Shown: positions 1 to 59,981 of the stretch, piece by piece
Layout: each line of letters begins with the position of its first letter
Position numbering within the stretch: the first letter of the stretch is position 1
Virus record (IMG/VR): IMGVR_UViG_3300045988_122441
Length of the DNA: 64,000 bases
Origin: a virus
Strand: one strand, 5' to 3'
The notes under the pieces: generated by a model
Told to the model about the DNA's origin: nothing
What the model saw: only the letters and a program-made list of their open reading frames with translations
Databases searched by the model: none
Translations under genes and position numbers: made by a program

Positions 1-49
1 ACAACAAGCCGACGATCTTTTCGTCGGTATGCTTACCTATGCTCGGCTT

Positions 50-78
50 CCGGGAGGACGACAACTCCTCCCGGTTTT
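50..78 (+). terminator. Rho-independent terminator
   Basis: 9-bp stem ccgggagga/tcctcccgg with a 7-nt loop, followed by TTTT. It lies just upstream of the RNase H RBS. Confidence 0.6.
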
Positions 79-99
79 ACAAAGTAAACGGAGGTCACT

Positions 100-744
100 A
101 TGGCTAAGAAGAAAAACAACTTTTATGCGGTGAAGAAAGGAAAGAATCCGGGGATATATAAAACCTGGTATGAATGTAGAGCGCAGGTTGAAGGCTTTAG
201 TGGCGCTCTATACAAAGGTTTCACAACCAGAAAAGAAGCTGAGAAGTATCTGAGTTGTAACAATACATCGGAAAAACAGGAGTTAAAAGAAGCTGATGTT
301 ACTATCTATGTTGATGGTAGCTTTGATGAACGATCCGGTGTTTATGGGTACGGGTGTGTTGTTATCAAAAATGATGGGGCTGTGGAAAAATATTACGGAG
401 CTGGTAATAATCCAGAATCAGTCAAGCTGAGAAATGTGGCAGGTGAGATGCTTGCCGCAATGAATGCAGTCAGATACGCAATGCAGAACGGATATAAATC
501 TGTGAATATTTGCTACGACTACAGTGGCATTGAGATGTGGGCTACTGGGGAATGGAAAACAAACAATGCATTAACAATGAAATACGCTCGTGCGATGCAG
601 GAGTGGGGAGAGAAAATCTCAATCATGTTTCAGAAAGTCGCAGCTCATACAGGTGTCGAATACAATGAAGCCGTAGATCAACTTGCAAAATTTGCGGTAA
701 GTAATTTTTGTAAGGAAAACGGTATAGGGAATGAAATGCGTTGA
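100..744 (+). CDS. Ribonuclease H (RNase HI type) with N-terminal hybrid-binding (Cauli_VI-like) domain
   Basis: The N-terminus FYAVKKGKNPGIYKTWYECRAQVEGFSGALYKGFTTRKEAEKYL is typical of the RNase H1 HBD. It is followed by IYVDGSF...GEMLAAMNAV...KVAAHTG..YNEAVDQLAK, an RNase H fold D-E-D-H/D pattern. RBS aacggagg is upstream. Confidence 0.85.
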   Translation: MAKKKNNFYAVKKGKNPGIYKTWYECRAQVEGFSGALYKGFTTRKEAEKYLSCNNTSEKQELKEADVTIYVDGSFDERSGVYGYGCVVIKNDGAVEKYYGAGNNPESVKLRNVAGEMLAAMNAVRYAMQNGYKSVNICYDYSGIEMWATGEWKTNNALTMKYARAMQEWGEKISIMFQKVAAHTGVEYNEAVDQLAKFAVSNFCKENGIGNEMR

Positions 745-779
745 GGCGCTAAGTGCGGGTTCGATTCCCGCCATTCCCT
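727..779 (+). other. Truncated tRNA-like element (7-bp acceptor stem plus T-arm only, 53 nt)
   Basis: gggaatg (727-733) is the perfect complement of cattccc (772-778). A canonical T-arm gcggg-ttcgatt-cccgc lies at 755-771. Only 21 nt separate the acceptor 5' strand from the T-arm, so no D-arm or normal anticodon arm fits. It overlaps the last codons of the RNase H gene. Confidence 0.35.
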
Positions 780-881
780 CTATCTCATAAATTGAAATGA
801 GATATGAGGAGGCTGTCCGAGATGTAAGAAACAGTCGGCTCGTGGGTTGCCGGTACAAATATGCTGAAAATCCACATGAAC

Positions 882-955
882 GGATCGTTAGCTCAGTTGG
901 TTAGAGCAATCGGCTCATAACCGATCGGTCATCCGTTCGAGTCGGATACGATCCA
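882..955 (+). tRNA. tRNA-Met (anticodon CAT); elongator type, or tRNA-Ile2 if lysidine-modified
   Basis: Hand-folded cloverleaf: acceptor ggatcgt/acgatcc, D arm gctc-agttggtta-gagc, anticodon arm atcgg-ctCATaa-ccgat, variable cggtc, T arm atccg-ttcgagt-cggat, discriminator A. The G1:C72 pair and the absence of a 3xGC anticodon stem argue against an initiator. Confidence 0.9.
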
Positions 956-984
956 TTGAATATTAGAAAAGGAGGAATTTTAAA

Positions 985-2592
985 ATGTTCAGACCAACCA
1001 TTAATTCAACGCCACTGACATCACAGACGGCGAACACTTTTTTCAGAAACATTGGTGGAGAAAGTTTCCACAATGATGTAACATTCATCTCTACATTGAG
1101 AGCATTAGTTGCATCAAGAGTTAGTGAGGGAGAAAGTGTATTTGTTGCATTTAGAAATACCAGCTATTCAAAAAACACTATCGAAGATAATCCGAGTCAT
1201 GCTGTATTAAACGCTATGTATGATCCGCGTGATTACGGAGAGGGAAGCATTATTATCCATAGCTTTGAAGGTAATGCATCAGATAATCTCGCATCGTTCA
1301 AAATTATCGAGAGAGAGTTTGCATCACATAATAGTGGATTTGAACGAATCGTGAAAGTGACCGAATTTTTCAGGAAAACTTTTTATTCTTTGTGCTATGT
1401 AAATCCGGCGGAGCGCAAGGTCGTTATCTTCGTAGACCATCTGAATATTCGCAGAATGCATTATTTACAGTGTGCGATATTCGCCTTTTTACCATGGTAT
1501 TTTGATCCGAATGCAGGAGTTACAGAAGATGAGATGGATTTGATTCAGTCTTTAAGAGAAACTACTCCGGAAAGATATATGGCAGCAATCTCAAAAATTG
1601 CATCTGCATACGATTTCAGAGGTATGCATATCAGAAATTCTCTGAAGGGATTTGAAACGATTTATGAAAAGCATCAGTGTGATTCTCTCAGAAGCAGTAT
1701 CCAGAGTTATATCAGAAAGATTAGAGATTATAACGACCAGATTGCTAATGTATTGAGAAATAAAAATGATGCGGAAATCAGGCTGATGGGGCTGGAAGAG
1801 AAAATCGCAAGACTTGAGGGAGAAGATTCTGAAATCATGGAATACTTCCTTTGCAACACAAAACTCGATTTGGAATATGTCAATGGTTCAGAACTGACAT
1901 TTGTTGTAAAAGATTACCTGATGTATTTCGATGAGGATATGGCAAAAACAATCATTGACAATAATAACAGCTATGTGTACAGACATTCAAGAAGCTTTGA
2001 CCGTGAAGATGTAAAAAAGCTGATGTATGCAATTTTCATCGATCAGGTGTTAAAACTTAGATTTTGCTGCGCTTATACTATCCGCCTTGGTGAAAGAGTA
2101 ACCGGTATGCGCGACTATAGCTATAACGAAAGCTGTGATACATACATCCCGAACCCACATATCGACCGCTTTAGTTGTCTCGGAAACTACGAGAGAACAA
2201 TGAATGAACGGTTGATGGACAACGATGCGATTGGTGCTATCGAGCAGTGTATCAGCTCATGTAAGAGTTTGAACTTCAGTGACAGCACAGTTATGGAAGT
2301 ATTTATGGATCGTATGTGTAGTAGAGATGGATACAGACATAATAAATGCATAGAGCTTCCAGACGGCAATATCGTGGATATGAAGGGTGCAATCGAATGG
2401 ATGAAAGAGCAGGAAAGAGCTGCTCAGGAAGCGGAAGCTCCAGAAGAAGAACAGGAAGAAACTTCAGTTGCTGAAGCACAGGAGCCGACAGAGGAAATTC
2501 CAGTTCCGGATGAAGAAACTGTAGACCACATCGATGAAGATGAAGAAATCGAAGATGACCTCGAATTACTCGAAGAGGATGAATTATTCTAA
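985..2592 (+). CDS. Hypothetical protein (535 aa) with central coiled-coil and strongly acidic C-terminal tail
   Basis: Long ORF with RBS aaaggagg 8 nt upstream. The C-terminus is E/D-rich (EEEQEETSVAEAQEPTEE...DEDEEIEDDLELLEEDELF). No motif was recognised with confidence. Confidence 0.7.
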   Translation: MFRPTINSTPLTSQTANTFFRNIGGESFHNDVTFISTLRALVASRVSEGESVFVAFRNTSYSKNTIEDNPSHAVLNAMYDPRDYGEGSIIIHSFEGNASDNLASFKIIEREFASHNSGFERIVKVTEFFRKTFYSLCYVNPAERKVVIFVDHLNIRRMHYLQCAIFAFLPWYFDPNAGVTEDEMDLIQSLRETTPERYMAAISKIASAYDFRGMHIRNSLKGFETIYEKHQCDSLRSSIQSYIRKIRDYNDQIANVLRNKNDAEIRLMGLEEKIARLEGEDSEIMEYFLCNTKLDLEYVNGSELTFVVKDYLMYFDEDMAKTIIDNNNSYVYRHSRSFDREDVKKLMYAIFIDQVLKLRFCCAYTIRLGERVTGMRDYSYNESCDTYIPNPHIDRFSCLGNYERTMNERLMDNDAIGAIEQCISSCKSLNFSDSTVMEVFMDRMCSRDGYRHNKCIELPDGNIVDMKGAIEWMKEQERAAQEAEAPEEEQEETSVAEAQEPTEEIPVPDEETVDHIDEDEEIEDDLELLEEDELF

Positions 2593-2605
2593 GGAGAGAA
2601 TGAAT

Positions 2606-3550
2606 ATGAGTAAACTGATTAAATTGCCGCAGGATATTCTCGATCAGTATACAAAGGAGTTTTATGAAACTCTGAGATCGGGAAAATTTTCAGATGGGAA
2701 GGTAAACTTTACAAAGACACTTGGGACTGTTGATCGAAAAGCAACAGTCCTTTTTACTAAGATGGCATGGGAGAAAATGCAGCTGCTTGTTAAAGAATTT
2801 GATAAGGAAGTTGCATGGCATGGAATTGCAGAGAGATGCGAAGAGAAAGATACATATCTGATTTCAGACATCCTTGTTTATCCACAGGAAGTAACGGGTT
2901 CTACAGTTACAACAGATCAGTCCAAATACGAAAACTGGCTTATGTCACACGATGACGAAGTGTTTAATAACATTAGAATGCAGGGGCATTCACATGTAAA
3001 TATGGCGGTAAGCCCATCAAGTGTGGATTTGAGTCTGTACGAACGAATTCTGGATCAGCTCAGTAGCGATATGTTCTATATCTTCATGATTTGGAACAAG
3101 CGTGGTGAAAAGACTGTAAAAATCTATGATCTCAGAGAGAATATCCTGTTTGAAACAGCAGATGTCACAGTGACTATCAAAGGTATGGAAGATATGACGG
3201 AATTCCTTGAAGAGGCAAAGGAATTGGTCGTGACAAAAACATACAATTATGGCGGATACGGAACCGGTGCCCATCCATATCATTATCCGGGCTATGGAGC
3301 TGCAAAAAGAGATGAGTCGAAAGGCGGTGCAAGCCTGGGAAAACATCAGCCCCTTGTGTCAACAGGTAAGAAAAGCAAAGGGCGCAAGGGGAAACGTAAG
3401 AAAGACAAATCAACTGGAAAACAGATGAGCATGGCTGATTATGGATATCCCGGTTGTGGCGATGATGACTATGATGACACAGATATTCATGGCGGAGTCA
3501 ATGGATATAACGACGAATACTGGAGACGCCAGTATGGGTTCGACTATTAA
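2606..3550 (+). CDS. JAB/MPN (JAMM) metalloprotease-domain protein with Gly/Lys-rich C-terminal extension
   Basis: Complete JAMM signature: upstream Glu (EVAWHGIAER) plus GHSHVNMAVSPSSVD, which matches H-x-H-x7-S-x2-D. The start was chosen at the ATG with RBS aaggag 9 nt upstream; the track ORF begins earlier, inside the upstream gene. Confidence 0.8.
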   Translation: MSKLIKLPQDILDQYTKEFYETLRSGKFSDGKVNFTKTLGTVDRKATVLFTKMAWEKMQLLVKEFDKEVAWHGIAERCEEKDTYLISDILVYPQEVTGSTVTTDQSKYENWLMSHDDEVFNNIRMQGHSHVNMAVSPSSVDLSLYERILDQLSSDMFYIFMIWNKRGEKTVKIYDLRENILFETADVTVTIKGMEDMTEFLEEAKELVVTKTYNYGGYGTGAHPYHYPGYGAAKRDESKGGASLGKHQPLVSTGKKSKGRKGKRKKDKSTGKQMSMADYGYPGCGDDDYDDTDIHGGVNGYNDEYWRRQYGFDY

Positions 3551-3563
3551 GGTGGTGAAATGA

Positions 3564-4052
3564 ATGACCAGAGAAGAATTTCAAGAGAATGTAAATAGCT
3601 GGTACGACCTTAGAGAGTTTTGTAATGAATATGGCTGCGAGGTATGCAGTGATATTTATTCACAGGACGAAATGGACGAGGAAATCGATAATAGTATCGT
3701 AGATATGGCAAGAGAAGCGACGGATTGGAGAGATTTATTATCGAAATTAGAGGACATTCCTACTGAAGATGAGTATTACATAAAGAATGGATATGGTGAT
3801 TTCACGGAAGTAGATGAAGAAGATTTCGATTATCACAAAGATGATGTCTTTGATTGGGCTGAGAATGAAGGTGTCTTCGACGAGGAAGATGAAGAGGATG
3901 AAGAGCCAGAGGAAGAATCAGAAGAAGATATCGAAGAACCGGAGGAACCAGAAGACCCTGATGATGGATATGAGGTAGGAAATGAGGAAATGTCTATCGC
4001 AGAACTTTTCGTTGTACCGAACAATGGAAAAAGAGGAATATATAACGTTTAA
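3564..4052 (+). CDS. Hypothetical highly acidic protein
   Basis: ORF with RBS aaggtggtg. It contains long runs of D/E (EEDEEDEEPEEESEEDIEEPEEPEDPDD). Confidence 0.6.
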   Translation: MTREEFQENVNSWYDLREFCNEYGCEVCSDIYSQDEMDEEIDNSIVDMAREATDWRDLLSKLEDIPTEDEYYIKNGYGDFTEVDEEDFDYHKDDVFDWAENEGVFDEEDEEDEEPEEESEEDIEEPEEPEDPDDGYEVGNEEMSIAELFVVPNNGKRGIYNV

Positions 4053-4067
4053 ACTAAGGAGGATAAC

Positions 4068-4739
4068 ATGGATTTAAGTAAATCATATGAATTTTTTCAG
4101 CCAGAGAAGGATAAAGCAAGAATCCACATCGTAGGATGTGGTTCCGTTGGATCAACAGTTGCAGAAAACCTTGCAAGATGCGGTGTAACAAAGATAACTC
4201 TGTATGACTTTGATAAAGTTGAACCGCATAATATCGTAAACCAGATGTTCGATCAGAACGACGTAGGAAGACTGAAGGTGGATGCACTGAAGGATATCCT
4301 TACAGACATCAATCCAGAAATCGCAGATCAGATCGAGGTGAAACCAGAAGGATGGCAGGGAAAATTAATGTCTGGATACATCTTCCTGTGTGTGGATAGC
4401 ATCGAACTGAGAAGAGAGATCGTTGAAAAGCATATGGACAGCCCGTATGTAAAAGCGGTATTTGATTTCAGAACCCTTCTTGAAAGCGCACAGCATTATG
4501 CAGCTGACTGGTCTGATTCCAAAATGAAGAAAGACCTGCTGAACTCGATGCAGTTCTCACACGATGAAGCTAAGGATGAAACCCCTGTATCTGCTTGTGG
4601 TGTAACTCTTGGCGTAGCAACAACAGTGCGATTGATTTCAGCTCTTGGAGTGAACAATTACATTAACTTCGTAAAAGGAGAAGGAATCAAGAAGATGATT
4701 ATCATGGACGGGTTCAAATTTGACCTTCTGGCATTCTAG
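4068..4739 (+). CDS. ThiF/MoeB/E1-like adenylation-domain protein (short, no catalytic-Cys domain)
   Basis: IHIVGCGSVGSTVAENLARCGVTKITLYDFDKVEPHNIVNQMF matches the Rossmann GxGxxG plus D-x-D...N..RQ pattern of E1/ThiF adenylation domains. The protein is only 223 aa. Confidence 0.8.
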   Translation: MDLSKSYEFFQPEKDKARIHIVGCGSVGSTVAENLARCGVTKITLYDFDKVEPHNIVNQMFDQNDVGRLKVDALKDILTDINPEIADQIEVKPEGWQGKLMSGYIFLCVDSIELRREIVEKHMDSPYVKAVFDFRTLLESAQHYAADWSDSKMKKDLLNSMQFSHDEAKDETPVSACGVTLGVATTVRLISALGVNNYINFVKGEGIKKMIIMDGFKFDLLAF

Positions 4740-4741
4740 TC

Positions 4742-4942
4742 ATGAGGGATAAGCAAAGGATTGACCCGTTCTGTGAAGTCTTATCGGCTGAGTGGAAAAG
4801 AATACCAGACATGAGATTTGGTCAGTTAATGTATAACTTCTTTCACGATGAGTATAACTCTGATCCATTTTATATAGAAGATGCTGAACTGATTAGTAGA
4901 TTTCAAGCATACGTCGATAAGATCAGCAAGAATGTGTATTAA
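4742..4942 (+). CDS. Hypothetical small protein (66 aa)
   Basis: ORF starts 2 nt after the E1-like gene stop and is followed by a strong terminator. Confidence 0.5.
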   Translation: MRDKQRIDPFCEVLSAEWKRIPDMRFGQLMYNFFHDEYNSDPFYIEDAELISRFQAYVDKISKNVY

Positions 4943-4951
4943 AAGTGAATG

Positions 4952-4978
4952 AACCGCCACCTTGCGTGGCGGTTTTTA
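4952..4978 (+). terminator. Rho-independent terminator
   Basis: Stem accgccac/gtggcggt with loop cttgc, followed by TTTTT. Confidence 0.8.
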
Positions 4979-4980
4979 TA

Positions 4981-5268
4981 AAGAACATGCAATGATATTT
5001 ACCTCTTTGAGGTAGCTTCTTACTGTCAGTGGAAGTAACAACTTGATAAGGAAAAGAACAGAGGCGACAGAGAAAGCGGAGCACGCCGGAAGAACGTCGA
5101 ACTTCAGAATCAACTGATTCTGTCGAACGATCCAAATAACAAATTACCAAGTTAAAAACAACTAATGAACTGGTTATCAACGGATTACACTACCTGAGAA
5201 AATAAATACATGTCAGGAGGAGATCATCCGGGATACAGCCCATACATACATTAGATTGCGAAGTTCTT
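4981..5268 (+). ncRNA. Structured element A of a 4-member paralogous family (candidate RT-associated ncRNA)
   Basis: Closing helix aagaac-at-gcaat (4981-4993) pairs with attgc-gaa-gttctt (5255-5268). Invariant G at 4994. Hairpin 1 is tacctc-ttt-gaggta (5000-5014). Hairpin 2 is cttc-tt-act-gtc-agt-g-gaag. The 3' motif catacattag is conserved. It ends 13 nt before the RT start codon. Confidence 0.7.
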
Positions 5269-5281
5269 GAAAGGAGAAGAT

Positions 5282-6421
5282 ATGTACTACATTACAGTAA
5301 AACAGCCTCCATCATACCATCAGATGACATTAGAAGAGTTTCTTTTTGGAGGTAACGTACAACCAGAATTAATCAATGAAAATCTTACGAATACCAGAAC
5401 ATATGAGGTTGAAAATGTAAGCGAAAGATTTCTTCAGCTTGTTGATATAGATAAGCTTATTGCCAGACTTGTGTGGTTTAATGAGAGAACCGAATACTTA
5501 CGAGAGAAGCCAAGACGTGAATGGTATTATGAGTTCTACATTCCAAAAAAGAGTGGCGGTCTTAGAAAAATAGATGCACCAGAACCGGAATTAAAAGAAG
5601 CACTTAGCACGCTGAAGAATATTTTTGAGATAGATTTTAAAGCACTTTATCATACATCTGCGTTCGCATATATAAAGAAGAGAAGCACTCTTGATCTGCT
5701 GAAGCGTCATCAGGCAAACGAGAGTAAATGGTTTGAGAAATTGGACTTATCTAATTTCTTTGGAAGTACAACAATGGAATGGGTTCTCCATATGTTTTCA
5801 ATGGTTTTCCCATTCTCAGAAGTTATGAAAGACGAAAAAGGTAAGGCAGAACTTACAAAAGCACTTGAACTCGGATTCCTGGATGGCGGTCTTCCACAGG
5901 GGACTCCATTGTCACCAACTGTTACGAATATCATGATGATTCCGGTTGATTTCAAAGTTGCCAGAGAATTAAGGGAACATAATCATCAGAGATTTGTATA
6001 TACCAGATATGCTGATGATTTTCAGATTTCATCTAAATATAGTTTCAGTTTCATGGAAATCCAGAATGTAATAGTGTCTATCTTAAAGGATTTCGATGCA
6101 CCGTTTACAATCAAGAGTGAAAAGACACGATACGGATCATCGGCGGGACAGAACTGGAATCTCGGTCTTATGTTAAATAAGGACAACGAGATTACAGTAG
6201 GTCATAAGAAAAAGAGACAGTTCCAGGCAATGCTTTCTTCCTATATTATGGACAGGAAAAATGGAATTGCTTGGGATAAAAATGATATTCAGACAATGGA
6301 TGGGTATCGAAACTATTACCGAATGGTTGAGCCGGAAACGATTGATGGAATCGTTAGACATCTCAGCGAAAAATTCGGTGTTGATATCATAAAAGCAATT
6401 AAGGAAGACCTTACGGCTTAG
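5282..6421 (+). CDS. Reverse transcriptase, RT domain only (retron/retron-like type)
   Basis: RT motifs in order: YIPKKSGGLRKIDAP (1), SAFAYIKKRS, KLDLSNFFGST (A), GLPQGTPLSPTVTN (B), YTRYADDFQISS (C, YADD), IKSEKTRYG (D), NLGLMLNKDNEITVGHKKKRQF (E). No maturase, endonuclease or other fused domain. The start was taken at the ATG with RBS aaaggagaag. Confidence 0.85.
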   Translation: MYYITVKQPPSYHQMTLEEFLFGGNVQPELINENLTNTRTYEVENVSERFLQLVDIDKLIARLVWFNERTEYLREKPRREWYYEFYIPKKSGGLRKIDAPEPELKEALSTLKNIFEIDFKALYHTSAFAYIKKRSTLDLLKRHQANESKWFEKLDLSNFFGSTTMEWVLHMFSMVFPFSEVMKDEKGKAELTKALELGFLDGGLPQGTPLSPTVTNIMMIPVDFKVARELREHNHQRFVYTRYADDFQISSKYSFSFMEIQNVIVSILKDFDAPFTIKSEKTRYGSSAGQNWNLGLMLNKDNEITVGHKKKRQFQAMLSSYIMDRKNGIAWDKNDIQTMDGYRNYYRMVEPETIDGIVRHLSEKFGVDIIKAIKEDLTA

Positions 6422-6478
6422 GCTGTAGGTCTTCTGAGGTATTAAAAGGTATAAATAGGCATCATTTAGGAGAATATT

Positions 6479-6700
6479 ATGCTATATGGTAACGATGACA
6501 TTAAAGTAGATGGCGAGGACTATGCTATAGCATTACGCAATCTTGAACAAAAATATGGTTATGATGAGGATATCGAAACGATAATTAAAATGTGTAAGCA
6601 ATGGGAAAATAGTTTTCATAAATTAGAGAACAGATATCACAAATTAGTTATGGAAACAGCTATATTTGAAGCAAAAATCCGTAAAATCACAGCGGAATAA
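6479..6700 (+). CDS. Hypothetical small coiled-coil protein (73 aa)
   Basis: ORF with RBS aggaga 7 nt upstream, immediately downstream of the RT. Confidence 0.5.
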   Translation: MLYGNDDIKVDGEDYAIALRNLEQKYGYDEDIETIIKMCKQWENSFHKLENRYHKLVMETAIFEAKIRKITAE

Positions 6701-6739
6701 TCATCAATATTTATATCTAACTATAACAAGAAAATAAAA

Positions 6740-7001
6740 TCTATGCAATGAAATTACTGTTTTACAGTGCTTTTAGCTGTCAGCGAAAGTAACACCTTGA
6801 GAAGGAAAAGAACCACCTCCCAGCCAGCTGCCACGAGCTTCCTTCCAGGATCCAAACAAACAATATCAGAATCACTAGACATCAACATAATCCAACCACT
6901 GATTATCAATCACCTACAAATAGGAAATGTTCAAAGAACTAGATAACCAGTGAGATGCTCCTGAATTCTCAAGAAGACATACATACATTAGATTGCATAG
7001 A
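6740..7001 (+). ncRNA. Structured element B of the 4-member family
   Basis: 10-bp closing helix tctatgcaat (6740-6749) / attgcataga (6992-7001). G at 6750. Hairpin 1 is actgt-ttt-acagt. Hairpin 2 is cttt-ta-gct-gtc-agc-g-aaag. 3' motif catacattag. Confidence 0.7.
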
Positions 7002-7004
7002 AGC

Positions 7005-7292
7005 AAATGTACAATGAAATTATATCCTTTGGATATGCTTTTAGCCGTTGGCGGAAGTGACAACTTGATAGGGAAAGGAGAAGAGCACCCCGTGCTGCTG
7101 AGGCGCCTAAATCATGATCTTCAGATCCTGGTAAGGTTCCGAACAATATCAAACGAAGATAAAATCACGATAACGTCCTGATAATCAATAAGTTCATACG
7201 CAATCTTCACTCATTTCTGCAAATCAAAGATCTGCGTAGCTAAGCTGAAGACTCATCGAGGACATCACCATCGTACATCAGATTGTACATTT
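7005..7292 (+). ncRNA. Structured element C of the 4-member family (3 nt after element B)
   Basis: 11-bp closing helix aaatgtacaat (7005-7015) / attgtacattt (7282-7292). G at 7016. Hairpin 1 is atatcc-ttt-ggatat. Hairpin 2 inner stem is gcc-gtt-ggc. 3' motif gtacatcag. The 62-aa track ORF inside it has no RBS. Confidence 0.7.
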
Positions 7293-7322
7293 TGGATAAA
7301 TTATATTCAAGGAGGATAGAAT

Positions 7323-7781
7323 ATGTATTTTAACACAAACATCAATTTAATAAGGGTTCCTAGAGTATTCAGTGGCTCTCATCCAAACGAGGATAAGATG
7401 AATGCATGTAGAGCCTACTATAGAGAAAATCACAAAATCGATAGAGATATCGTGGTTGACGAAAATATGCAGCTCAAGGATGGATACATCGGATATCTGG
7501 TTTTGAAAGAAAACAACGAGTCTGTAATTGGAGTCAAACAGACGGAATCAGGTAAAACGACTCTTGTATATGGAGTTCATCCAGGCGTAGACAAAGAGTA
7601 TTGCTGGAAAGTAGTTGATGATACAGAGGATAGACTGAATCTTAATGTTGGATCACATGCTATTGTAAGAACAAAATTCGGAGATGAAGAAATTCTTATC
7701 ACAAGAATTGAGCGTGTTTCCAAGGCTAAGAAGAAAAAGATGGGACACTTAAAAAGAGTCGTAAGATGTCTGGCGGAGTAA
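7323..7781 (+). CDS. Hypothetical protein with ParB-N-like 'L-x-DGY' segment followed by a small beta-rich module
   Basis: RBS aaggagga. IVVDENMQLKDGYIGYLVLKENN resembles the ParB/sulfiredoxin-type DGxxR/Y segment. The C-terminal KEYCWKVVDD..VGSHAIVRTKFGDEEILITRI recurs at the N-terminus of ORF 18058-18513. Confidence 0.6.
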   Translation: MYFNTNINLIRVPRVFSGSHPNEDKMNACRAYYRENHKIDRDIVVDENMQLKDGYIGYLVLKENNESVIGVKQTESGKTTLVYGVHPGVDKEYCWKVVDDTEDRLNLNVGSHAIVRTKFGDEEILITRIERVSKAKKKKMGHLKRVVRCLAE

Positions 7782-7955
7782 CAGTATGAGATGTGTTTAC
7801 TTAGAAAAGAAAGAATTTCTTTCAAACGAAGACAGACGTATTCATACAGCTTGCATATGCAGAAATAAAAAGTGTGCGAAATATAAAACTTTTAGCCTGG
7901 ATAAAGCATACATATGCGGAAATTGCTTGCTTCATGCTAAGGAAAGAGAGGAACA

Positions 7956-8522
7956 ATGAATTTTTATATAGCCGATATGCATTTTGGTCATAAGAATGTG
8001 ATCAGATATGACAATAGACCATTTGATTCTATCGAAGAAATGGATAAGGCAATGATTACACTGTGGAATGAAACTGTCGGAGATAATGATGTTGTTTATA
8101 TTCTCGGCGACTTTAGCTGGTATAAAGAAGAAAAGACGGCATTTATTCTTGGATGCCTTAAAGGACACAAGGTTCTTATCAGAGGGAATCACGACCATAT
8201 TTCTCCAAAAGTCGCAAGACACTTTGAACGGATTTGTGAATATGCAGAAATCAAAGATGGAGAAGAAAAAGTTGTCATGTCTCACTATCCAATGCCTTTC
8301 TGGAATGGTCAGCACAGAAACAGTATTCATTTGTATGGTCATGTCCATAACTCACATCAGTATAATTACTGTCTGAGCATTGAGAAGGAGTTGCGTCAGT
8401 TACAGGATATCCCGATGAGAATGTTTAATGTTGGGTGTATGATGACGTATATGAATTACATGCCGAGAACATTAAATGAAATTTTGGAAAGCAAAGGAGG
8501 TACAGAGGATGGACAGAAGTAA
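7956..8522 (+). CDS. Calcineurin-like metallophosphoesterase
   Basis: Motifs IADMHFGH, GDFS, RGNHDH, SHYP, YGHVH. Confidence 0.8.
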   Translation: MNFYIADMHFGHKNVIRYDNRPFDSIEEMDKAMITLWNETVGDNDVVYILGDFSWYKEEKTAFILGCLKGHKVLIRGNHDHISPKVARHFERICEYAEIKDGEEKVVMSHYPMPFWNGQHRNSIHLYGHVHNSHQYNYCLSIEKELRQLQDIPMRMFNVGCMMTYMNYMPRTLNEILESKGGTEDGQK

Positions 8523-8811
8523 CTTTGATCCACAGGTCGGTGATTCTGTAAGGGTTCGATCGTGGGAAGATATGAAAAGTGAGTTCGGTATCGATGAGGA
8601 TGGAAATATCCCGTGCAGATTTTCCTTTACCGAATATATGAAAGATATGTGCGGGGATGAATTTACCATTACGAAGATTCACGATGGTAAATATAGCGGA
8701 CATGAAAAGGGGAGCGTTATGTTGTCGGTTGATATGCTCGAACCTATCCCAGAAGAAGAAATCGACGGGACGGAAATTGATGATTTCCTGAGTGCAATGA
8801 AGGTAAATTAG
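8509..8811 (+). CDS. Hypothetical protein (100 aa)
   Basis: ATG with RBS aaggagg 10 nt upstream; overlaps the upstream gene end by 14 nt. Confidence 0.55.
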   Translation: MDRSNFDPQVGDSVRVRSWEDMKSEFGIDEDGNIPCRFSFTEYMKDMCGDEFTITKIHDGKYSGHEKGSVMLSVDMLEPIPEEEIDGTEIDDFLSAMKVN

Positions 8812-8824
8812 TGGAGGTAGTGTT

Positions 8825-9232
8825 ATGAGGCTTATCATAGTGACTGGACAAGAGGGTGCGGACGTAGAGAACCTACTCCGCAGAACTATATCCGAAAATA
8901 AATACACGTATGATGATGCTCCTAAAATGGTCTTTCCTGAAAGGTCTAGCTTGCTTTATCATCCAAGAAGCCTTTACAACAACGTTAGAAAAGTTGTCAG
9001 CGATCATATTGACAGGAATGAAGATTTGTTCGTAGCAACATTTTCTGATTATGCTATGTATGGCGTAAGGGTTGAGATAAGACTTGCTGATTTTGAAGGC
9101 GCTAAGCTGTATCAGATGATGTCAGATGGCGAGGTTGTGGTATCCGAGATAGATAGTAATGGGAAATGCCAATATATCAAGGGAGTATTTGATGTTTTGG
9201 ACGAAGCTCTTAATGACGTACTTGGATGGTAG
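8825..9232 (+). CDS. Hypothetical protein (135 aa)
   Basis: ORF with RBS ggaggtag upstream. Confidence 0.55.
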   Translation: MRLIIVTGQEGADVENLLRRTISENKYTYDDAPKMVFPERSSLLYHPRSLYNNVRKVVSDHIDRNEDLFVATFSDYAMYGVRVEIRLADFEGAKLYQMMSDGEVVVSEIDSNGKCQYIKGVFDVLDEALNDVLGW

Positions 9233-9537
9233 AAAGATATTACTGCACATAGTGCATTAGTACACTCACAATGAAGATAGATTGTTTTTGGGCGAAAGTA
9301 TTTAATACGATAGCAATACATAATAGCAATCACTCCTGCTGTTAGCGAGAGTTCGACAATGGTACTTGCATCTCAAAATTACATAAGATTTGAAAAAGAC
9401 TATCAACTGCGTTGACACTAATTTTCAAATCATACGAATTTTTCGATGGCATGATATAGCATATGCTAAACCGAAGTTTCCAGAACGAGGAAACCGGTTT
9501 ACGCATACGGATTGTGAGTAAATAAAAAGGAGGCTAC

Positions 9538-10824
9538 ATGGGATATAAAGATATATATAAATTGCAGGAAATTGGGGGAGCAAAAGCCAAATGCGATTTC
9601 ATAAAAGAACACGCAGATGATGGATATTTTAAAAGATTTCTATATTTTGCGTTGAATCCGTTAATTACATACAATATATCGAAAAAATCACTGGATAAGC
9701 TTGTGACTGAAGAGGGTACAGAGGGTCAAAAGCTTATCTTTTTTAATGATATTTTCGAGTGCTGCGAACACCTTTCAAGATTGAGAAGTATGGATGATGC
9801 AACATTACGGCAGGTAAAAATGCTGTTAAATGTGAAATATTCCGATAAGGCAGAAAGAGAGTTATATATGCAACTGCTCTCAAAGACAGTACGTCTCGGT
9901 ATTACAGGTAAGACCATTAACAAGATCATTCCGAATCTTATTCCTGAATGGGAAGTACAGCAAGCTTATCCGGTTGATAAGTATCCTTTGAAAGAAGGAA
10001 CAGAATTCTGGTTGACACAGAAGCTCAACGGAGCAAGAGCAACCTTATATGAAGGTCAGCTGCTTGCAAGAAGTGGTATGCCATACAAAGGTCTGGAACA
10101 TATCACTTCTGCATTGTCCTGGTTAAGAGTGGCAGGATTCGTTGCTGACGGAGAATTGACACTCAAAGACAAAGGAAATCTGAGTGATAACGAAGCGTTT
10201 AGAGTTGCAACTGGAGTTCTCAACTCGGATAGTGTTAATAAAACGGTGATTTGCTACACGATTTTTGACATGATTCCAATCAGAGATTTCGATTCACCTG
10301 CTCCACAGACTACATATCGTTATCGTCGAGAGATTCTGAATCAGTTCGCCGAAAGGATTGATGATACGAATGGCGCGGTTAAGGTTCTGCCTGTTTTGTA
10401 TCATGGAAACGATCAATCCAAAATAGATGAGCTTTTGGAACAGATGGTTCGTGAGGACAAAGAGGGACTGATGATTAATACGGATGTTCCATATAGAAGA
10501 ACACGACATAAAGGTATTCTTAAAGTAAAGAGATTCTATACTATGGACTTACCAATTATCAGATGTGAAGGTGGAACTGGAAGACTGAAAGGGACTCTCG
10601 GAGCTTTTGTTCTGGAGTACAAAGGTAATGAGGTCAAAGTTGGTTCTGGATTCACTGACGAACAAAGAGAAAAATTCTGGCGAGATAGAGATGATCTGAC
10701 AGGAACGCTTTGTGAAGTAAAATATAAAGAAATTTCACAGGATAAGGGAACTGGGCTTGAAAGCTTGCAGTTCCCCGTTTTTGTAGGATTGAGAACAGAT
10801 AAAACAGAAGTAAGTTACGGATAA
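9538..10824 (+). CDS. ATP-dependent DNA ligase
   Basis: Nucleotidyltransferase motif I KLNGAR (KxxG), motif IV EGLMIN, motif V LKVK. OB-domain pattern GAFVLEYKGNEVKVGSGFTDEQRE. Confidence 0.85.
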   Translation: MGYKDIYKLQEIGGAKAKCDFIKEHADDGYFKRFLYFALNPLITYNISKKSLDKLVTEEGTEGQKLIFFNDIFECCEHLSRLRSMDDATLRQVKMLLNVKYSDKAERELYMQLLSKTVRLGITGKTINKIIPNLIPEWEVQQAYPVDKYPLKEGTEFWLTQKLNGARATLYEGQLLARSGMPYKGLEHITSALSWLRVAGFVADGELTLKDKGNLSDNEAFRVATGVLNSDSVNKTVICYTIFDMIPIRDFDSPAPQTTYRYRREILNQFAERIDDTNGAVKVLPVLYHGNDQSKIDELLEQMVREDKEGLMINTDVPYRRTRHKGILKVKRFYTMDLPIIRCEGGTGRLKGTLGAFVLEYKGNEVKVGSGFTDEQREKFWRDRDDLTGTLCEVKYKEISQDKGTGLESLQFPVFVGLRTDKTEVSYG

Positions 10825-12937: not shown

Positions 12938-13191
12938 ACCGTAATGATATTACTGCTTTGCAGTGCTTCTTACTGTTAGTGGAAGTGACACCTTGAGAAG
13001 GAAAGGAGGAGACGCCTCCAGCACGGCAGGCGCTGCCGCATCCGGATCAGACCCAGAAGACTCCGACGAGAAATCGATAAATTAACCATAACACACTGAG
13101 AATCAATAATCCCCATACCAAGTCGAGTCTCCAGATGCGCGGGATACCGGCGATGAATTCCAGGTTACCGTACATTAGATTACAGTTTAAA
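12933..13191 (+). ncRNA. Structured element D of the 4-member family
   Basis: Closing helix tttaaac-c-gtaat (12933-12945) / attac-a-gtttaaa (13179-13191). G at 12946. Hairpin 1 is actgc-ttt-gcagt. Hairpin 2 is cttc-tt-act-gtt-agt-g-gaag. 3' motif gtacattag. Confidence 0.7.
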
Positions 13192-14010: not shown

Positions 14011-16224
14011 ATGAGAGTTTTACTGTTATTAAGAGGAAGCGCCGGATGCGGAAAATCAACATGGATTGAGCAGAACGGGTTAAAGCAGTATGCATTATCT
14101 GCTGATGATATCCGAATGATGTATTCAAGCCCTCAGATGATGCCGGATGGAACACACGCAATCAATCAGTCAAATGACGGAGTAGTATGGAAAACACTGT
14201 TTAATATTCTGGAAACTAGAATGAGAAATGGAGAGTTTACAGTAATTGATGCCACAAACTCCAAAACAGCTGAGATGAATAGATACAAGAAGATGTGTGA
14301 CGAATACAGATACAGAATGTTTTGCGTTGATTTTACTACGATTCCGATTGAAGTTACAAAGGAAAGAAATCGTGGACGGCAGGAGTTGAAAAGAGTACCG
14401 GAGGAAGTAATCGATAAGATGTATGCAAGATTTGAGACACAGAAGATTCCGTCTGGTATCAAGGTCATTCAGCCGGATGAGTTAAACGCTGTGTTTATGA
14501 AGAAATTTGATCTGAATCAGTATAAGCGCATCCATCATATTGGAGATATTCATGGATGTAGAACTGCACTGGATACATATTTCAAGATGAATGGCGGATT
14601 CAAAGATGATGAGTTTTATATCTTCTGTGGCGATTACACAGATCGTGGAATTGAAAATGCAGATGTCCTGAAATTCCTCCTTTCAACCTACGATAAGCCG
14701 AATGTTTTACTGCTTGAGGGGAATCATGAACGGTGGTTATGGGACTGGGCGCATGACAAAGTAAGCAATTCAAAGGAATTTGAGTTCCATACAAAAGCTG
14801 AGATTGAAGATGCCGGAATTGACAAGAAATCAATCAGAAAGCTTTACAGAAGAATGGGACAGTGTGCTTACTATGAGTTTCGTGGCAAGACAGTCCTTGC
14901 TACTCATGCAGGATTGAGCTTCATCCCAGAGAATTTAACTACAGTCGCTACGAGTCAGATGATTAAGGGCGTTGGAAGATATAATGATGCCGAGCAGGTC
15001 GCATCTACCTTTGCTGAAAAGATGGGCGATGGATTCTATCAGGTTCATGGTCATAGAAATACCAAAGGTCTTCCGGTAAAAGTCAACGCTCATGTCTTCA
15101 ATCTTGAAGGCAGAGTTGAGTTTGGTGGAAATCTGAGAGCCGTTATCCTCGATAACGATGGGGCTTTCGTCCCTGTTGAGGTACAGAATACCGTCTTAAG
15201 AGAGCCTGAGAAATTAGAGTCCAGTGCTGACTCTGTCGGTGAGTGGATTTTTGAATTACGTCGTAATAAATACATCAAAGAAAAACAGTACGGCAATATT
15301 TCATCTTTCAACTTCACCAAAACAGCGTTTTATGACAAAATCTGGGACGAACAGACAACAAAAGCAAGAGGATTGTACATCGACATTCCAAAGCAGAAAG
15401 TTGTAGCCAGAGCATACGATAAGTTCTTCAATGTGAATGAGCGTCCAGAAACAAAACTTGAGATGTTGCATGACAAGCTGTCATTCCCAGTGAGAGCGTA
15501 TGTTAAGGAAAACGGATATCTCGGAATCGTTGCGAATAATCCAGAAACAGGAGAGCTGTTTGTGACAACGAAATCCAATCCGGAAGGAGCATTCGCAGAA
15601 TGGTTTATGGAGGCACTTCAGAAACAGCTCGGCGAAGAAACGCTTGACAAAGTAAATGAGTATTCAAAAGAGCATAACGTATCCTTTGTGTTTGAAAATG
15701 TAGACATGGAGCGTGACCCGCACATCATCAAATACCCAGAAAGTAAAGTATTTCTGCTTGATATTGTAGTAAACGATATGAAGTTCCAGAAGCTGAGCTA
15801 TGAGGATATGTGTGACGTGGCTGACTCAATGAATATTCCACATAAAGAGCTTGGCTATGAGATCGATACATGGCAGGAGTTCTTTGACTGGTACAACGAA
15901 GTGATGGTAGAAGATTACAGATACAACGGAAGACTCATTGAAGGATTTGTGGTTGAAGATTCAGATGGATACATGGTTAAGCTGAAACTGGCATACTACC
16001 ATTTCTGGAAGTTCATGAGATCTATCGCTCATGAGGCAATCAGAAAAGGCTATATCGACCCGAAGAGAACATCAGCACTGGTTACTCCTATTGCAAATCA
16101 GTTCTACTCATGGGTAAAAACACTGCATGATGTGGAAGATGTTGACAGTGTCCCGAGGGATATTTGTACTCTGAGAGATATGTTCTATGAATCCGACTCC
16201 GGTAAGAAATTCAAATATGAATAG
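14011..16224 (+). CDS. Pnkp-type RNA repair enzyme: polynucleotide 5'-kinase / 2',3'-phosphatase / ligase-like adenylyltransferase
   Basis: N-terminal P-loop GSAGCGKST. Central lambda-phosphatase-type motifs GDIHGC, GDYTDRG, GNHE, THAG, GHRN. C-terminal nucleotidyltransferase motif I VKENGYLG (KxxG). The three-domain order matches bacterial Pnkp. Confidence 0.8.
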   Translation: MRVLLLLRGSAGCGKSTWIEQNGLKQYALSADDIRMMYSSPQMMPDGTHAINQSNDGVVWKTLFNILETRMRNGEFTVIDATNSKTAEMNRYKKMCDEYRYRMFCVDFTTIPIEVTKERNRGRQELKRVPEEVIDKMYARFETQKIPSGIKVIQPDELNAVFMKKFDLNQYKRIHHIGDIHGCRTALDTYFKMNGGFKDDEFYIFCGDYTDRGIENADVLKFLLSTYDKPNVLLLEGNHERWLWDWAHDKVSNSKEFEFHTKAEIEDAGIDKKSIRKLYRRMGQCAYYEFRGKTVLATHAGLSFIPENLTTVATSQMIKGVGRYNDAEQVASTFAEKMGDGFYQVHGHRNTKGLPVKVNAHVFNLEGRVEFGGNLRAVILDNDGAFVPVEVQNTVLREPEKLESSADSVGEWIFELRRNKYIKEKQYGNISSFNFTKTAFYDKIWDEQTTKARGLYIDIPKQKVVARAYDKFFNVNERPETKLEMLHDKLSFPVRAYVKENGYLGIVANNPETGELFVTTKSNPEGAFAEWFMEALQKQLGEETLDKVNEYSKEHNVSFVFENVDMERDPHIIKYPESKVFLLDIVVNDMKFQKLSYEDMCDVADSMNIPHKELGYEIDTWQEFFDWYNEVMVEDYRYNGRLIEGFVVEDSDGYMVKLKLAYYHFWKFMRSIAHEAIRKGYIDPKRTSALVTPIANQFYSWVKTLHDVEDVDSVPRDICTLRDMFYESDSGKKFKYE

Positions 16225-27820: not shown

Positions 27821-28149
27821 GGGGCTGTAAAGGTTTCGACAGGGGTATGAAAGTTATGAATTCGCTAGAGTGATGACTTAATCATCAAACCTTAAATACA
27901 AACGCAAACAGACAGATGTTAGCAGTAGCCTAAGTTGCTACACCAAAACACATTGAGATAATGCTGGTAGATGTTGAGGTTCAAAAACAAGCATATTCAG
28001 TATACGGTTCCCTGTATATGAATACCTGCATTGGTTGAGATGGTTAAGAACAGGGTGGTGGACAAGAAATCAGTACATGATTCCAAAACAGCGTAAAGAT
28101 TCATAGTGAGTAGTATTTTTGGACAGGGGTTCGATTCCCCTCAGCTCCA
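27821..28149 (+). ncRNA. ssrA: tmRNA (SsrA), one-piece
   Basis: 5' end ggggctgtaaaggtttcgacagggg. 3' end ggacaggggttcgattcccctcagctcca. The acceptor stem includes the G3:U70 alanine determinant; T-arm gaggg/cccct-like. The tag reading frame ends ...ANRQMLAVA-TAA (stop at 27931-27933). CCA is not encoded. Confidence 0.9.
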
Positions 28150-28761: not shown

Positions 28762-28998
28762 ATGTGTAAAGTGATGTTAAATTCCATTGACAAAGTAAAA
28801 CGATTTGTCAATATAACCTCAAGAGTAGACGGAGATGTATTTCTTCAGTCTGGTAGATACATAATTGATGCGAAGTCCATTATGGGGATTTTCAGTATCG
28901 ACTTAACAAAACCATTGGAAATGAGCTTTGAGAAATGTTCCGACGGAGAAAGAGATAAGTATCTGGAGAAAATTCAGGAGTTTATCGTGGAGGTGTAG
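28762..28998 (+). CDS. HPr-like (PTS phosphocarrier fold) small protein
   Basis: IIDAKSIMGIFSIDLTKPLEMSFE resembles the HPr-family pattern aKSimgvmsLg...g..i. Start taken at the ATG with RBS aaaggaga. Confidence 0.5.
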   Translation: MCKVMLNSIDKVKRFVNITSRVDGDVFLQSGRYIIDAKSIMGIFSIDLTKPLEMSFEKCSDGERDKYLEKIQEFIVEV

Positions 28999-28999
28999 T

Positions 29000-30028
29000 A
29001 TGAATTTATTACAAATCAAAGATTTAATCGCATCCGATGAATACGAATTTCTCAGAAGCAATGAGCATCTTGGAGATAAAGTAATCATGATAGGGCTTGG
29101 CGGAAGTCATGCTTATGGAACTAATATAGAAACTTCTGACCTCGATGTCAGAGGATGTGCATTAAATAGCAAAGAGGAAATTCTTACGAATCAGCATTAT
29201 GAACAGTTTGTTGATGAGAAAACAGACACTACAATTTATGCATTCAATAAATTAATTAGTCTGCTGTGTAATTGCAATCCAAATACGATTGAAATGCTCG
29301 GGTTAAAGCCCGAGCATTATTTATATCTGTCACCTGTTGGTAGAGAGCTTCTTAATAATAAAGGTCTTTTCCTTTCAAAGAAAGCAGCTCAGGCTTTCGG
29401 CGGTTATGCAACAGCTCAGCTTAGGAGACTTGATAATAAGGCAGCAAGACTTGTCGGGCAGGCTCAACGAGAGCAACATATCCTGAATAGCATTAATAAT
29501 GTCAGGGCGGATTTCAACGAAAGGTATTCTCTGTACCCAGACGATGCTATCAGATTATACATAGATAAATCAGATAAAGAAGATATGGAATCAGAGATTT
29601 TCATGGATGTAAAGCTGACAAGGTATCCTTTGCGTGATTACAAATCTATGTGGTCAGAAATGCATAATGTCGTGAAAGATTATGCGAAAGTTGGTAAGAG
29701 AAATCAACATGCGATTGAGCATAATAAACTCGGTAAGCATATGATGCATCTGATCAGACTGTATATGATGTGCCTGGATATACTTGAGAACAAGGAAATT
29801 GTGACGTTCAGAAGCAAAGAACATGACTTATTGATGTCGATTAGAAATGGTAAATATCTGGATACCAATAGACAGCCGATTCCAGAATTCTTTGAAATGG
29901 TTGATGAATATGAAAAGAAAATGCAGTATGCGAAAGAGAATACTGATCTTCCAGAGAAACCGGATTATAAGAAGATACAGGAATTTGTTATGGATGTTAA
30001 TGAGAGAGTTGTCAGAGGATCAATTTAA
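29000..30028 (+). CDS. Pol-beta-superfamily nucleotidyltransferase (RlaP/PF10127-like, RNA-repair-associated type)
   Basis: IGLGGSHAYGTNIETSDLDVRG matches the G-S-x-x-x-G...D-x-D minimal NTase motif. The size and helical C-terminal half fit the 'predicted nucleotidyltransferase' family linked to RNA repair operons. Confidence 0.6.
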   Translation: MNLLQIKDLIASDEYEFLRSNEHLGDKVIMIGLGGSHAYGTNIETSDLDVRGCALNSKEEILTNQHYEQFVDEKTDTTIYAFNKLISLLCNCNPNTIEMLGLKPEHYLYLSPVGRELLNNKGLFLSKKAAQAFGGYATAQLRRLDNKAARLVGQAQREQHILNSINNVRADFNERYSLYPDDAIRLYIDKSDKEDMESEIFMDVKLTRYPLRDYKSMWSEMHNVVKDYAKVGKRNQHAIEHNKLGKHMMHLIRLYMMCLDILENKEIVTFRSKEHDLLMSIRNGKYLDTNRQPIPEFFEMVDEYEKKMQYAKENTDLPEKPDYKKIQEFVMDVNERVVRGSI

Positions 30029-59944: not shown

Positions 59945-59981
59945 GTTGATGCTGTAGTCAATATAGAAAGGAATATTGATT

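Follow-up and report, generated by a model that had tools for sequence, protein, structure and literature searches.

What are an E1-like adenylation protein and a JAB/JAMM metalloprotease doing side by side in a phage, and are there a ubiquitin-like protein (Ubl) and an E2 for them to work with? The question is raised by a gene cluster at positions 985-4942, on the plus strand, of a 64,000-nucleotide stretch of IMG/VR virus record IMGVR_UViG_3300045988_122441, the whole of which we call the window. A preliminary description of this DNA placed the two genes in a phage-borne cassette for Ubl conjugation and deconjugation, with no recognisable Ubl and no recognisable E2. Here, we propose that the cluster is quite probably the enzyme half of a complete phage-encoded Ubl conjugation/deconjugation system, whose other half, a Ubl and a protein of about 130 amino acids (p130), stands directly upstream, just off the window. 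The cassette reading is upheld by gene linkage, with the Ubl, a 535-amino-acid protein that we regard as E2-like (p535), the JAB protein and the E1 all present in 109 of the 119 loci with adequate flanks.

The modifier half was revealed by listing all open reading frames (ORFs) in 14 related viral loci that carry mapped window proteins. Directly upstream of p535, these loci have two extra conserved genes, one for p130 and one for a protein of about 75 amino acids ending in …VVKADNA, neither of which is encoded inside the window. Three contigs (L021-L023), in which the RNase H is the same as that of the window, match window positions 1-10700 at 99.94% identity. In them, base 1 of the window is locus base 9902, the Ubl gene occupies 9668-9895, and the p130 gene (129 amino acids) occupies 9180-9569. 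The Ubl stop codon ends 6 nucleotides 5' of the window and p130 is located about 100 nucleotides farther upstream of the Ubl, while the 3' flank of this p130-Ubl unit fills window positions 1-78 (plus strand), with terminator hairpins at 9-27 and 50-74, the second followed by TTTT (75-78). The apparent lack of a Ubl in the preliminary description was hence an artefact of the window's edge.

Modelling gives us confidence that the 75-residue protein has the ubiquitin (beta-grasp) fold. The sequence modelled was that of a homologue from the databases, with about 95% identity to the Ubl that this phage encodes off the window, and its AlphaFold2 (AF2) model has a predicted local distance difference test score (pLDDT) of 92.9, a beta-grasp with the element order bb-a-bb-3(10)-b, and a low-confidence tail at residues 70-75. 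When this model was compared with the PDB by Foldseek, the top matches were ubiquitin, SUMO, NEDD8, Ubl domains, and the bacterial Ubl 8tyx (probability 1.0, template modelling score up to 0.71). The family comprises about 1500 homologue clusters, the best 120 of which share 75-96% identity with the query.

The Ubl of this phage ends in …K-A-D-N-A and would be missed by a search for a Gly-Gly terminus. Across the family, the C-terminal core is K-x-x-[N/G/S]-[A/G], mostly NA but also GA and SA, with GG in two loci (L144 and L106). The remark that no ORF ends in Gly-Gly holds for the window only. An invariant penultimate Asn was considered as the key terminal feature and dropped, since members with DGA, DSA, or YGG occur and tail lengths differ. 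Many genomes add a variable tail of 1-4 residues after the core, and the conserved small-residue end is kept across relatives together with this tail-processing architecture. Six loci encode in-frame Ubl-p130 fusions (among them L085:4945-5565, L087:6462-7082, L101:5941-6582, L150:1606-2370, and L151:7919-8563), where the Ubl hidden Markov model (HMM) covers 1-75 and the p130 HMM begins at position 2. The junction is …VVKADNA/A-x-IK-x-AG, that is, exactly …DNA/A (the slash marking the boundary), which suggests that the mature Ubl ends in …DNA and makes a “Rosetta-stone” link between p130 and the Ubl. In three loci (L096, L118, and L119), the p130+Ubl gene pair is also tandemly duplicated as a unit. 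For p130 itself, the family libraries held no relatives of known function and a PDB profile search gave noise only. In a divergent clade of loci described below, one contig (L163) encodes three head-to-tail Ubl repeats, each ending in IKGN, plus a one-residue cap, and in two others (L164 and L161) Ubl repeats are fused to helical extensions; the poly-Ubl, extension, and E2-like genes of this clade are at L163:4929-5552, L163:6089-7642, L164:10054-10668, and L161:11460-12461. Full-length alignment of the small proteins of this clade with the Ubl of the main lineage is modestly supported (43.9%, E=2.4e-4). Together, the variable tails, the triple Ubl, and the Ubl-p130 fusions imply that Ubl precursors are processed, presumptively by the JAB protein.

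How firmly are these genes bound to one another? Component HMMs were run on 139 further loci, 80 of them viral and 59 from genomes or metagenome-assembled genomes (MAGs), the labels of the latter being mostly Clostridia, Oscillospiraceae, Christensenellaceae, and Ruminococcus. The gene order p130-Ubl-p535-JAB-E1 is repeated in about 125 independent loci, which goes beyond coincidence. The 10 of the 119 adequately flanked loci that fall outside the count given above form the divergent clade, where the four parts were identified separately and stand in other orders: Ubl-E1-JAB-E2-like (L153), E2-like-JAB-E1-Ubl (L156), triple Ubl-E2-like-JAB-E1 (L163), and E2-like-Ubl-JAB-E1 (L168). Distant lineages have a Ubl, JAB, E1, and E2-like protein without p130. 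That the genes keep company while their order is shuffled points to a functional unit and not to inherited synteny alone. Four-gene modules also occur in cellular genomes of the Candidate Phyla Radiation (CPR), at 8845-11655 of L158 (a 1.21 Mb Saccharibacteria MAG contig) and at L168:2243-9090, and the broader family is therefore not confined to phages. Both CPR modules sit downstream of a TrmB-type regulator.

The candidate E2 is p535, encoded at 985-2592 (plus strand). Its AF2 model (pLDDT 86) has an N-terminal alpha/beta domain (amino acids 1-220), a 55-residue helix (223-277), a C-terminal alpha/beta domain that we describe as UBC/E2-like (about amino acids 283-480, nucleotides 1831-2424), and a disordered acidic tail (490-535). 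In the model, the order of secondary structure elements in the C-terminal domain is compatible with the UBC fold (helix 1, a four-stranded meander, the active-site loop, and helix 2), plus a helical insert; in UBC proteins, the catalytic Cys is found some 8-10 residues past an HPN-type motif. The family is large (819 matches in a word-indexed database and 2290 representative clusters in an exhaustive library), and p535 has no match in Pfam, PHROG, or NCBIfam, the Pfam families UQ_con and Prok-E2 included. PDB profile searches with the C-terminal domain returned no match, and Foldseek against BFVD returned uncharacterised phage proteins only. Among 20 sequences of a family that has diverged to 11-18% identity, P391, H392, C398, and G400 are the only invariant residues, with D433 nearly so. 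The four lie in a putative E2 active-site loop, P391-H392-I-D-R-F-S-C398-L-G400, at 2155-2184 (plus strand), in which C398 is encoded by nucleotides 2176-2178.

The link to canonical E2s runs through the distant loci. There, JAB+E1 pairs (28-38% identity) adjoin proteins of 340-560 amino acids, on phage-like and CPR contigs, that share the p535 coiled coil and the signature P-H-[IVL]-x3-8-C-[LW]-G … N-x-x-D. Aligned by hhalign with five canonical E2s, this distant clade gives a probability of 95.1% (E=3.3e-8, 113 columns) across helix 1, the beta-meander, the active-site loop, helix 2, and the PNPxDP loop, its P-H falling on E2 P76-N77 and its Cys on the catalytic Cys85. The p535 family in turn aligns with the distant clade at 95.2% probability (E=2.6e-8, 50 columns), in the active-site half only. 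Since the distant clade matches E2s and the p535 family matches the distant clade, we treat p535 as UBC-like and its Cys398 as catalytic. That the p535 family carries a strongly diverged UBC-like domain is, as judged from these profiles, well supported; that the window's own p535 carries one we infer from its family, and Cys398 is the predicted Ubl thioester cysteine. The stretch PNPHIDRFSCLG, which had been said only loosely to recall an E2 active site, is borne out by this transitive comparison, and a putative derived UBC/E2-like domain now stands where no E2 had been recognised. One distant E2-like protein bears Cys-rich zinc-finger-like repeats after the domain, with weak FYVE-type matches, and these may be a built-in E3-like module. 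Another route, from the E1 to E2 domains on bacterial plasmids, was abandoned, as the matches were generic ThiF genes without useful neighbours.

The 223-residue protein encoded at 4068-4739 (plus strand) is, as first described, a ThiF/E1-like adenylation domain, a minimal and single one. It matches Pfam ThiF (PF00899) at E=1.7e-25 (90 bits against a cut-off of 28.1), and its closest relative in the PDB is UBA5 (3e-12), followed by MoeB, Uba1, MccB, and Cap2. Across 16 sequences that include the distant clade, the invariant residues are G23, G25, G28, D47, D49, K70, D110, R115, R135, and C177, the GxGxxG motif being encoded at 4134-4151 and Cys177 at 4596-4598. The protein begins almost at the Rossmann fold, and the earlier statement that it lacks a Cys domain is right in that none is inserted; yet the invariant Cys177 is present at the C-terminal end of the crossover region, where an alignment with UBA5 would place it at UBA5 Cys250. 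A conjugating E1 needs a catalytic Cys within the crossover loop or in an insertion there. The E1 is presumably homodimeric. A plain MoeB/ThiF sulfur-transfer enzyme, which would have spoken against a conjugation cassette, is not what the searches returned: scores are far below the NCBIfam equivalog cut-offs (PRK08644, 83.9 against 159; TIGR02354, 68 against 152; TIGR02355, 48.7 against 376), and the NCBIfam matches span only the N-terminal Rossmann part, mostly amino acids 13-91. The best PADLOC matches are Cap2 models, and these too are confined to the Rossmann region (amino acids 16-86).

The JAB gene occupies 2606-3550 (plus strand); its ORF opens at 2534 (the longer form being 2534-3550), and orthologues and gene callers both place the start at the ATG at 2606, giving 314 amino acids. 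The sequence alone has no family match and no fused NlpC/P60 domain, and Pfam Prok-JAB is marginal (E of 0.019-0.15, under the cut-off). Comparison of orthologues confirms the prediction of a JAB/JAMM (MPN+) metalloprotease with an intact site: the E...HSHx7SxxD zinc site is invariant in 11 of them (the predicted catalytic residues being Glu at nucleotides 2807-2809, His-x-His at 2987-2995, Ser at 3017-3019, and Asp at 3026-3028), and a profile of these 11 matches Rpn11 chains only in the PDB (E=0.007), across the JAMM core and with the motifs in register. The protein ends in a variable tail of low complexity, first basic and then acidic-aromatic. In the loci surveyed, the JAB gene is always beside or near the E1 gene. 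A RadC-type or tail-assembly JAB protein was ruled out by the Rpn11-like profile, the absent NlpC/P60 domain, and the genomic context.

Given the folds and families of the Ubl, E1, and JAB proteins, the conservation of their active sites, the linkage of their genes, and the architectures of the precursors, how might the parts work together? By analogy with Bil and UBA5, we infer the following chemical steps. The Ubl would be made with a mature-type end in this phage (…K-A-D-N-A); in relatives, the precursor would be a Ubl with 1-4 extra residues, a tandem poly-Ubl, or a linear fusion of the Ubl to p130. The JAMM protease would trim these precursors to bare the small-residue C-terminus and would probably also undo conjugates. 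The E1 would adenylate the Ubl C-terminus and hold the Ubl as a thioester on Cys177, in the manner of UBA5, before it is handed to Cys398 of the p535 UBC-like domain. The N-terminal domain and coiled coil of p535 could provide oligomerisation and/or target recognition, making it an E2 with built-in E3-like specificity. The Ubl would then be moved onto amino groups of targets, of which p130 is the prime candidate, possibly through its N-terminal alpha-amine, since this is the bond present in the natural fusions. Those fusions and the poly-Ubl are an indirect sign that the Ubl may become joined to targets by its C-terminal carboxylate. Stated in full, the proposal is that a widespread phage lineage of roughly 110-125 kb, temperate and assigned mostly to gut Clostridia, encodes a complete ubiquitination-like cascade with a new E2 family (P-H…C-x-G, set within proteins of about 500 amino acids), an Asn-Ala Ubl, and encoded Ubl-p130 fusions and poly-Ubl precursors, and that it tags p130 and/or host proteins during infection. 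We lean towards this fuller version by a modest degree of belief. As to its biological role, phage self-regulation, host takeover, counter-defence, and prophage-borne defence are each a hypothesis.

Several observations weigh against this proposal. The Ubl of this phage ends in Asn-Ala and lacks the Gly-Gly (or single Gly) terminus that Ubl modifiers expose, either directly or once processed. Every E1 member has N58-Q59 in place of the R-Q of canonical E1/MoeB proteins, in which the Arg contacts the ATP phosphate, and the N-terminus of the E1 is very short. For the window's own p535, the E2 link is transitive and limited to the active-site half, over 50 columns. A direct hhalign comparison of the p535 family with E2s gives 0.5%, and a mixed alignment 18%, albeit in the same register, and Foldseek of the p535 model against the PDB found no significant fold match (best E=0.29). 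Finally, synteny within the main lineage may partly reflect shared ancestry, and the argument for function rests on the distant loci and the fusions.

The combination of Ubl, E1, E2, and JAB is of a known general kind, represented by types 6a-6e of Iyer et al. (2006), Type II CBASS, Bil, and Bub. We draw a distinction between the present cluster and each of these, since membership in CBASS, Bil, Bub, or PRTRC is in every case contradicted by a defining feature. Bil is similar in having separate genes for the Ubl, the E2, a JAB/JAMM deubiquitinase, and the E1, in lacking a separate E3, and in the Cys-based E1 and E2 that would be expected here; its deubiquitinase pre-processes the Ubl, exposing the C-terminus, before E1 and E2 conjugate it, as we expect of our JAB protein. 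Nevertheless, the Bil E1 joins two adenylation domains, one active and one inactive, to a mobile Cys domain (PMC11601596), whereas the phage E1 is a single domain of 223 residues with its Cys in the crossover loop. The Ubls of Bil end in Gly and that of the phage in Asn-Ala; the phage E2-like domain is embedded in a 535-residue protein, has P-H…C in place of the canonical motif, and is not directly detectable; and Bil is host-encoded and antiviral, whereas this system is phage-encoded and has p130 as an extra partner. Bub (6E/DUF6527) shares a single-domain E1 and a JAB peptidase, fusion or multi-beta-grasp Ubl precursors that need cleavage by the peptidase, and a non-canonical E2 with short forms that lack the C-terminal helices. 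Its E1 and E2, however, have no catalytic Cys and work through oxyesters on Tyr/Ser, whereas the phage E1 and p535 each have an invariant Cys and the JAB protein is not fused to the E1; moreover, no cluster protein matches DUF6527 (PF20137). With Type II CBASS, the cluster has in common E1 adenylation chemistry and a JAB partner (Cap2 and Cap3), and Cap2 is among the PADLOC and PDB matches of the E1. Cap2, though, is an E2-E1 fusion that conjugates the CD-NTase, unlike the separate genes and dedicated beta-grasp Ubl found here, and no operon protein matches CD-NTase or effector models. As for PRTRC cassettes, which combine a ThiF-family protein with PRTRC proteins A-F and a ParB-related gene, none of the PRTRC A-F models is matched by the cluster proteins, and the E1 scores 33 bits with the PRTRC ThiF-family model TIGR03736 (cut-off 144.75).

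Two further comparisons concern the parts more than the whole. UBA5-UFM1, ThiF-ThiS, and MoeB-MoaD resemble the phage pair in the compact single adenylation domain, and UBA5 also in the Cys at the C-terminal end of the crossover loop; the phage system differs in lacking UFC1/UFL1 or a sulfur-transfer partner and in having N-Q for R-Q. The sole earlier pairing of a phage Ubl with a JAB protein in the literature searched is that of the lambda/T1 tail-assembly proteins TAPI (a Ubl fused to a C-terminal domain) and TAPK (JAB plus NlpC/P60), for which cleavage after the Ubl was predicted, without E1 or E2 (Iyer et al. 2006). That pair belongs to the tail module and its JAB domain is fused to NlpC/P60, whereas the present system is found among early and replication genes together with an E1 and an E2-like protein. 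No phage-encoded system of E1, E2, Ubl, and JAB was described in the literature searched (full text, including a jumbo-phage survey), though a description elsewhere is possible.

Could the same genes serve another chemistry? One option is a sulfur-carrier pathway, in which the E1 adenylates a Ubl of the ThiS/MoaD/TtuB type and makes it into a thiocarboxylate, so that a cofactor, tRNA, or DNA can be thiolated; the p535 Cys would act as a persulfide relay, and the JAB protein would do no more than process the carrier. The best NCBIfam matches of the E1 are indeed ThiF/MoeB-type models, TtuB is among the structural matches of the Ubl (rank 41), the phage is rich in tRNA biology (tRNAs, a transfer-messenger RNA (tmRNA), a CCA-type enzyme, and an RNA ligase), and bacterial sulfur-assimilation clusters of JAB, ThiS, and E1 exist (Iyer et al. 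2006). We nonetheless consider this very improbable, given that the equivalog scores are far too low and concern the Rossmann half only, that the Ubl lacks a Gly-Gly end, and that the cluster proteins gave no match to rhodanese, cysteine desulfurase, ThiG/MoaE, or PP-loop thiolase domains; in addition, the large partner is E2-like, and it is modifier systems that are characterised by poly-Ubl and by fusions of a Ubl to another protein. Hardly credible, in our estimation, is a tailoring reaction like those of MccB and PaaA, both of which are among the PDB matches of the E1, that would act on the C-terminal region of the Ubl with its conserved near-end Asn to yield a nucleotide-peptide or cyclised product in place of a protein conjugate. 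The last residue of the Ubl or its neighbour is often an Asn (…DNA, …KGN), but Gly or Ser replaces it in many members (DGA, DSA, YGG), the substrate would be a folded ubiquitin-like domain of 75 residues and not a short peptide, the 223-residue E1 starts at the Rossmann fold without the N-terminal peptide-clamp domain of MccB, and the E2-like and JAB partners would be left unexplained.

Alternatively, there may be processing without conjugation, the Ubl serving p130 only as an N-terminal chaperone or assembly factor that the JAB protein cleaves off, in the way of ubiquitin-ribosomal protein fusions or lambda TAPI/TAPK, with a separate and unrelated role for the E1 and p535. The Ubl-p130 fusions and the joint duplication of the pair accord with this, and phage tail assembly already pairs a Ubl with a JAB protein in the absence of an E1 (Iyer et al. 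2006). However, in most genomes p130 has a gene of its own ahead of the Ubl gene, so that no cleavage is needed there, an E1 and an E2-like protein accompany the Ubl and JAB protein in distant lineages without p130, and the catalytic Cys of the E1 and that of the E2-like domain are both invariant. As the cluster is also situated among replication and early genes instead of a structural module, with a JAB protein not fused to NlpC/P60, we find this explanation quite improbable. A last alternative keeps the proposed chemistry and changes its purpose, to a prophage-carried, Bil-like anti-phage defence that tags the proteins of superinfecting phages. In its favour, the characterised bacterial Ubl systems (CBASS type II and Bil) are all antiviral, the phage is temperate (integrase at 59976-61178), and related four-gene clusters are found in cellular CPR genomes by TrmB-type regulators (L158 and L168). 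The cluster is, on the other hand, co-oriented with replication and early genes at a fixed position in about 125 genomes, unlike accessory defence cargo, its dedicated and phage-specific p130 suggests a self-directed function, and the PADLOC matches are limited to the generic Rossmann region of the E1. We hold such a defence role to be fairly unlikely.

What surrounds the enzymes? The preliminary description outlined one operon of five ORFs between a tRNA-Met and a strong terminator at 4952, and all of these were found by ORF listing, by ARAGORN, and as a hairpin with a T-run. The tRNA-Met (CAT; 882-955, plus strand; Rfam tRNA, 68 bits) forms the upstream limit of the enzyme operon, which is closed by an intrinsic-terminator-like element at 4952-4979 (plus strand), made up of a hairpin at 4952-4974 (9 bp, 6 of them G-C pairs) and a 3' TTTTT. 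The five-gene operon stands as a set of real ORFs but not as a constant unit: p535-JAB-E1 is the constant core in the 14 related viral loci, and the genes for the 162- and 66-residue proteins (3564-4052 and 4742-4942, both plus strand) are variable. The former, a hyper-acidic protein outside the conserved core, is encoded between JAB and E1 in some loci and 5-7 kb away, downstream of a reverse transcriptase (RT), in others, and is absent from the distant loci. It has a conserved N-terminal domain of about 100 amino acids and could be DNA-mimic-like. According to tblastn and HMM mapping, the 66-residue ORF is present at this place in close relatives only. Neither protein, including the N-terminal domain of the first, has a family or PDB match, and Pfam, NCBIfam, PHROGs, and PADLOC gave no usable match for either of them, for p535, or for the JAB protein. 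The whole cluster has no blastn match among deposited phages, and tblastn of the JAB protein against deposited phage genomes found a single unannotated contig and nothing else.

The phage location itself is well borne out. The window belongs to a large temperate phage with a DNA polymerase, DnaB, NrdD, an integrase, an endolysin, an RNA ligase/Pnkp, NAMPT, and a tmRNA, and its relatives are IMG/VR contigs of about 100-125 kb. Throughout this lineage, the cluster stays at one place and in the same orientation as the early and replication genes around it; its neighbours include HU, RNase H, RT, ligase, and further non-structural genes. The replication region also contains several genes of the RNA-repair or NAD-salvage kind: a Pnkp-like kinase/phosphatase/RNA ligase, the tmRNA, a CCA-type nucleotidyltransferase, and NAMPT (14011-16224, 27821-28149, 28928-30028, and 32752-34215). 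Such functions are usually read as answers to host defences that cleave tRNA or deplete NAD. Upstream of the cluster, an RNase H1 with a hybrid-binding domain (100-744) is also found in close relatives. Downstream is a retron-like RT at 5267-6421 (gene callers placing the start at 5282), which scores 169 bits with the NCBIfam retron St85 model (cut-off 235) and matches PADLOC RT_II-A at 2e-47. The RT follows the E1 in about 108 main-lineage loci and is absent from the distant Ubl/E1/JAB/E2-like loci, for which reason it was rejected as a core component and looks like a lineage-specific neighbour.

An intergenic element is repeated on the plus strand at 4986-5050, 6745-6815, 7010-7085, and about 12940-13000. 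Its parts are a promoter-like TGCAATGAAATTAT, two hairpins, the first variable and the second reading GCTTy…GCTGTCAGC…GAAGT, and a GTAACAACTTGATAGGGAAA that is conserved. When 16 loci were aligned, 12 of 15 predicted pairs showed compensatory changes, and no Rfam family matched. The element may serve the phage as a promoter or leader, or may represent a family of small RNAs; the idea that its two hairpins are the cognate non-coding RNA of the RT is weakened by its recurrence at four intergenic sites. A DUF5839 protein is encoded downstream of the RT (7323-7781), and on an unrelated Lactiplantibacillus plasmid (L167:6255-6551) a DUF5839 gene is two genes from a ThiF-family adenylyltransferase, which may be coincidence.

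What would a phage-encoded cascade mean? Bacterial Ubl conjugation has so far been characterised as a weapon of the host against phages (CBASS type II and Bil) or as a stress system (Bub). If our proposal is true, the same chemistry is used on both sides of the phage-host arms race, as with eukaryotic viruses, and the present system would be a viral counterpart of Bil, Bub, and CBASS. It would add a very divergent E2 family, a minimal Cys-bearing E1, and a non-Gly Ubl end that widens the rules of recognition by E1s and deubiquitinases, and the natural Ubl-p130 fusions supply a concrete candidate substrate. Members are plentiful in gut metagenomes (about 1500 Ubl and 2290 p535 clusters), and the family is without any annotation, so that many “hypothetical” phage genes would, on this proposal, gain a function.

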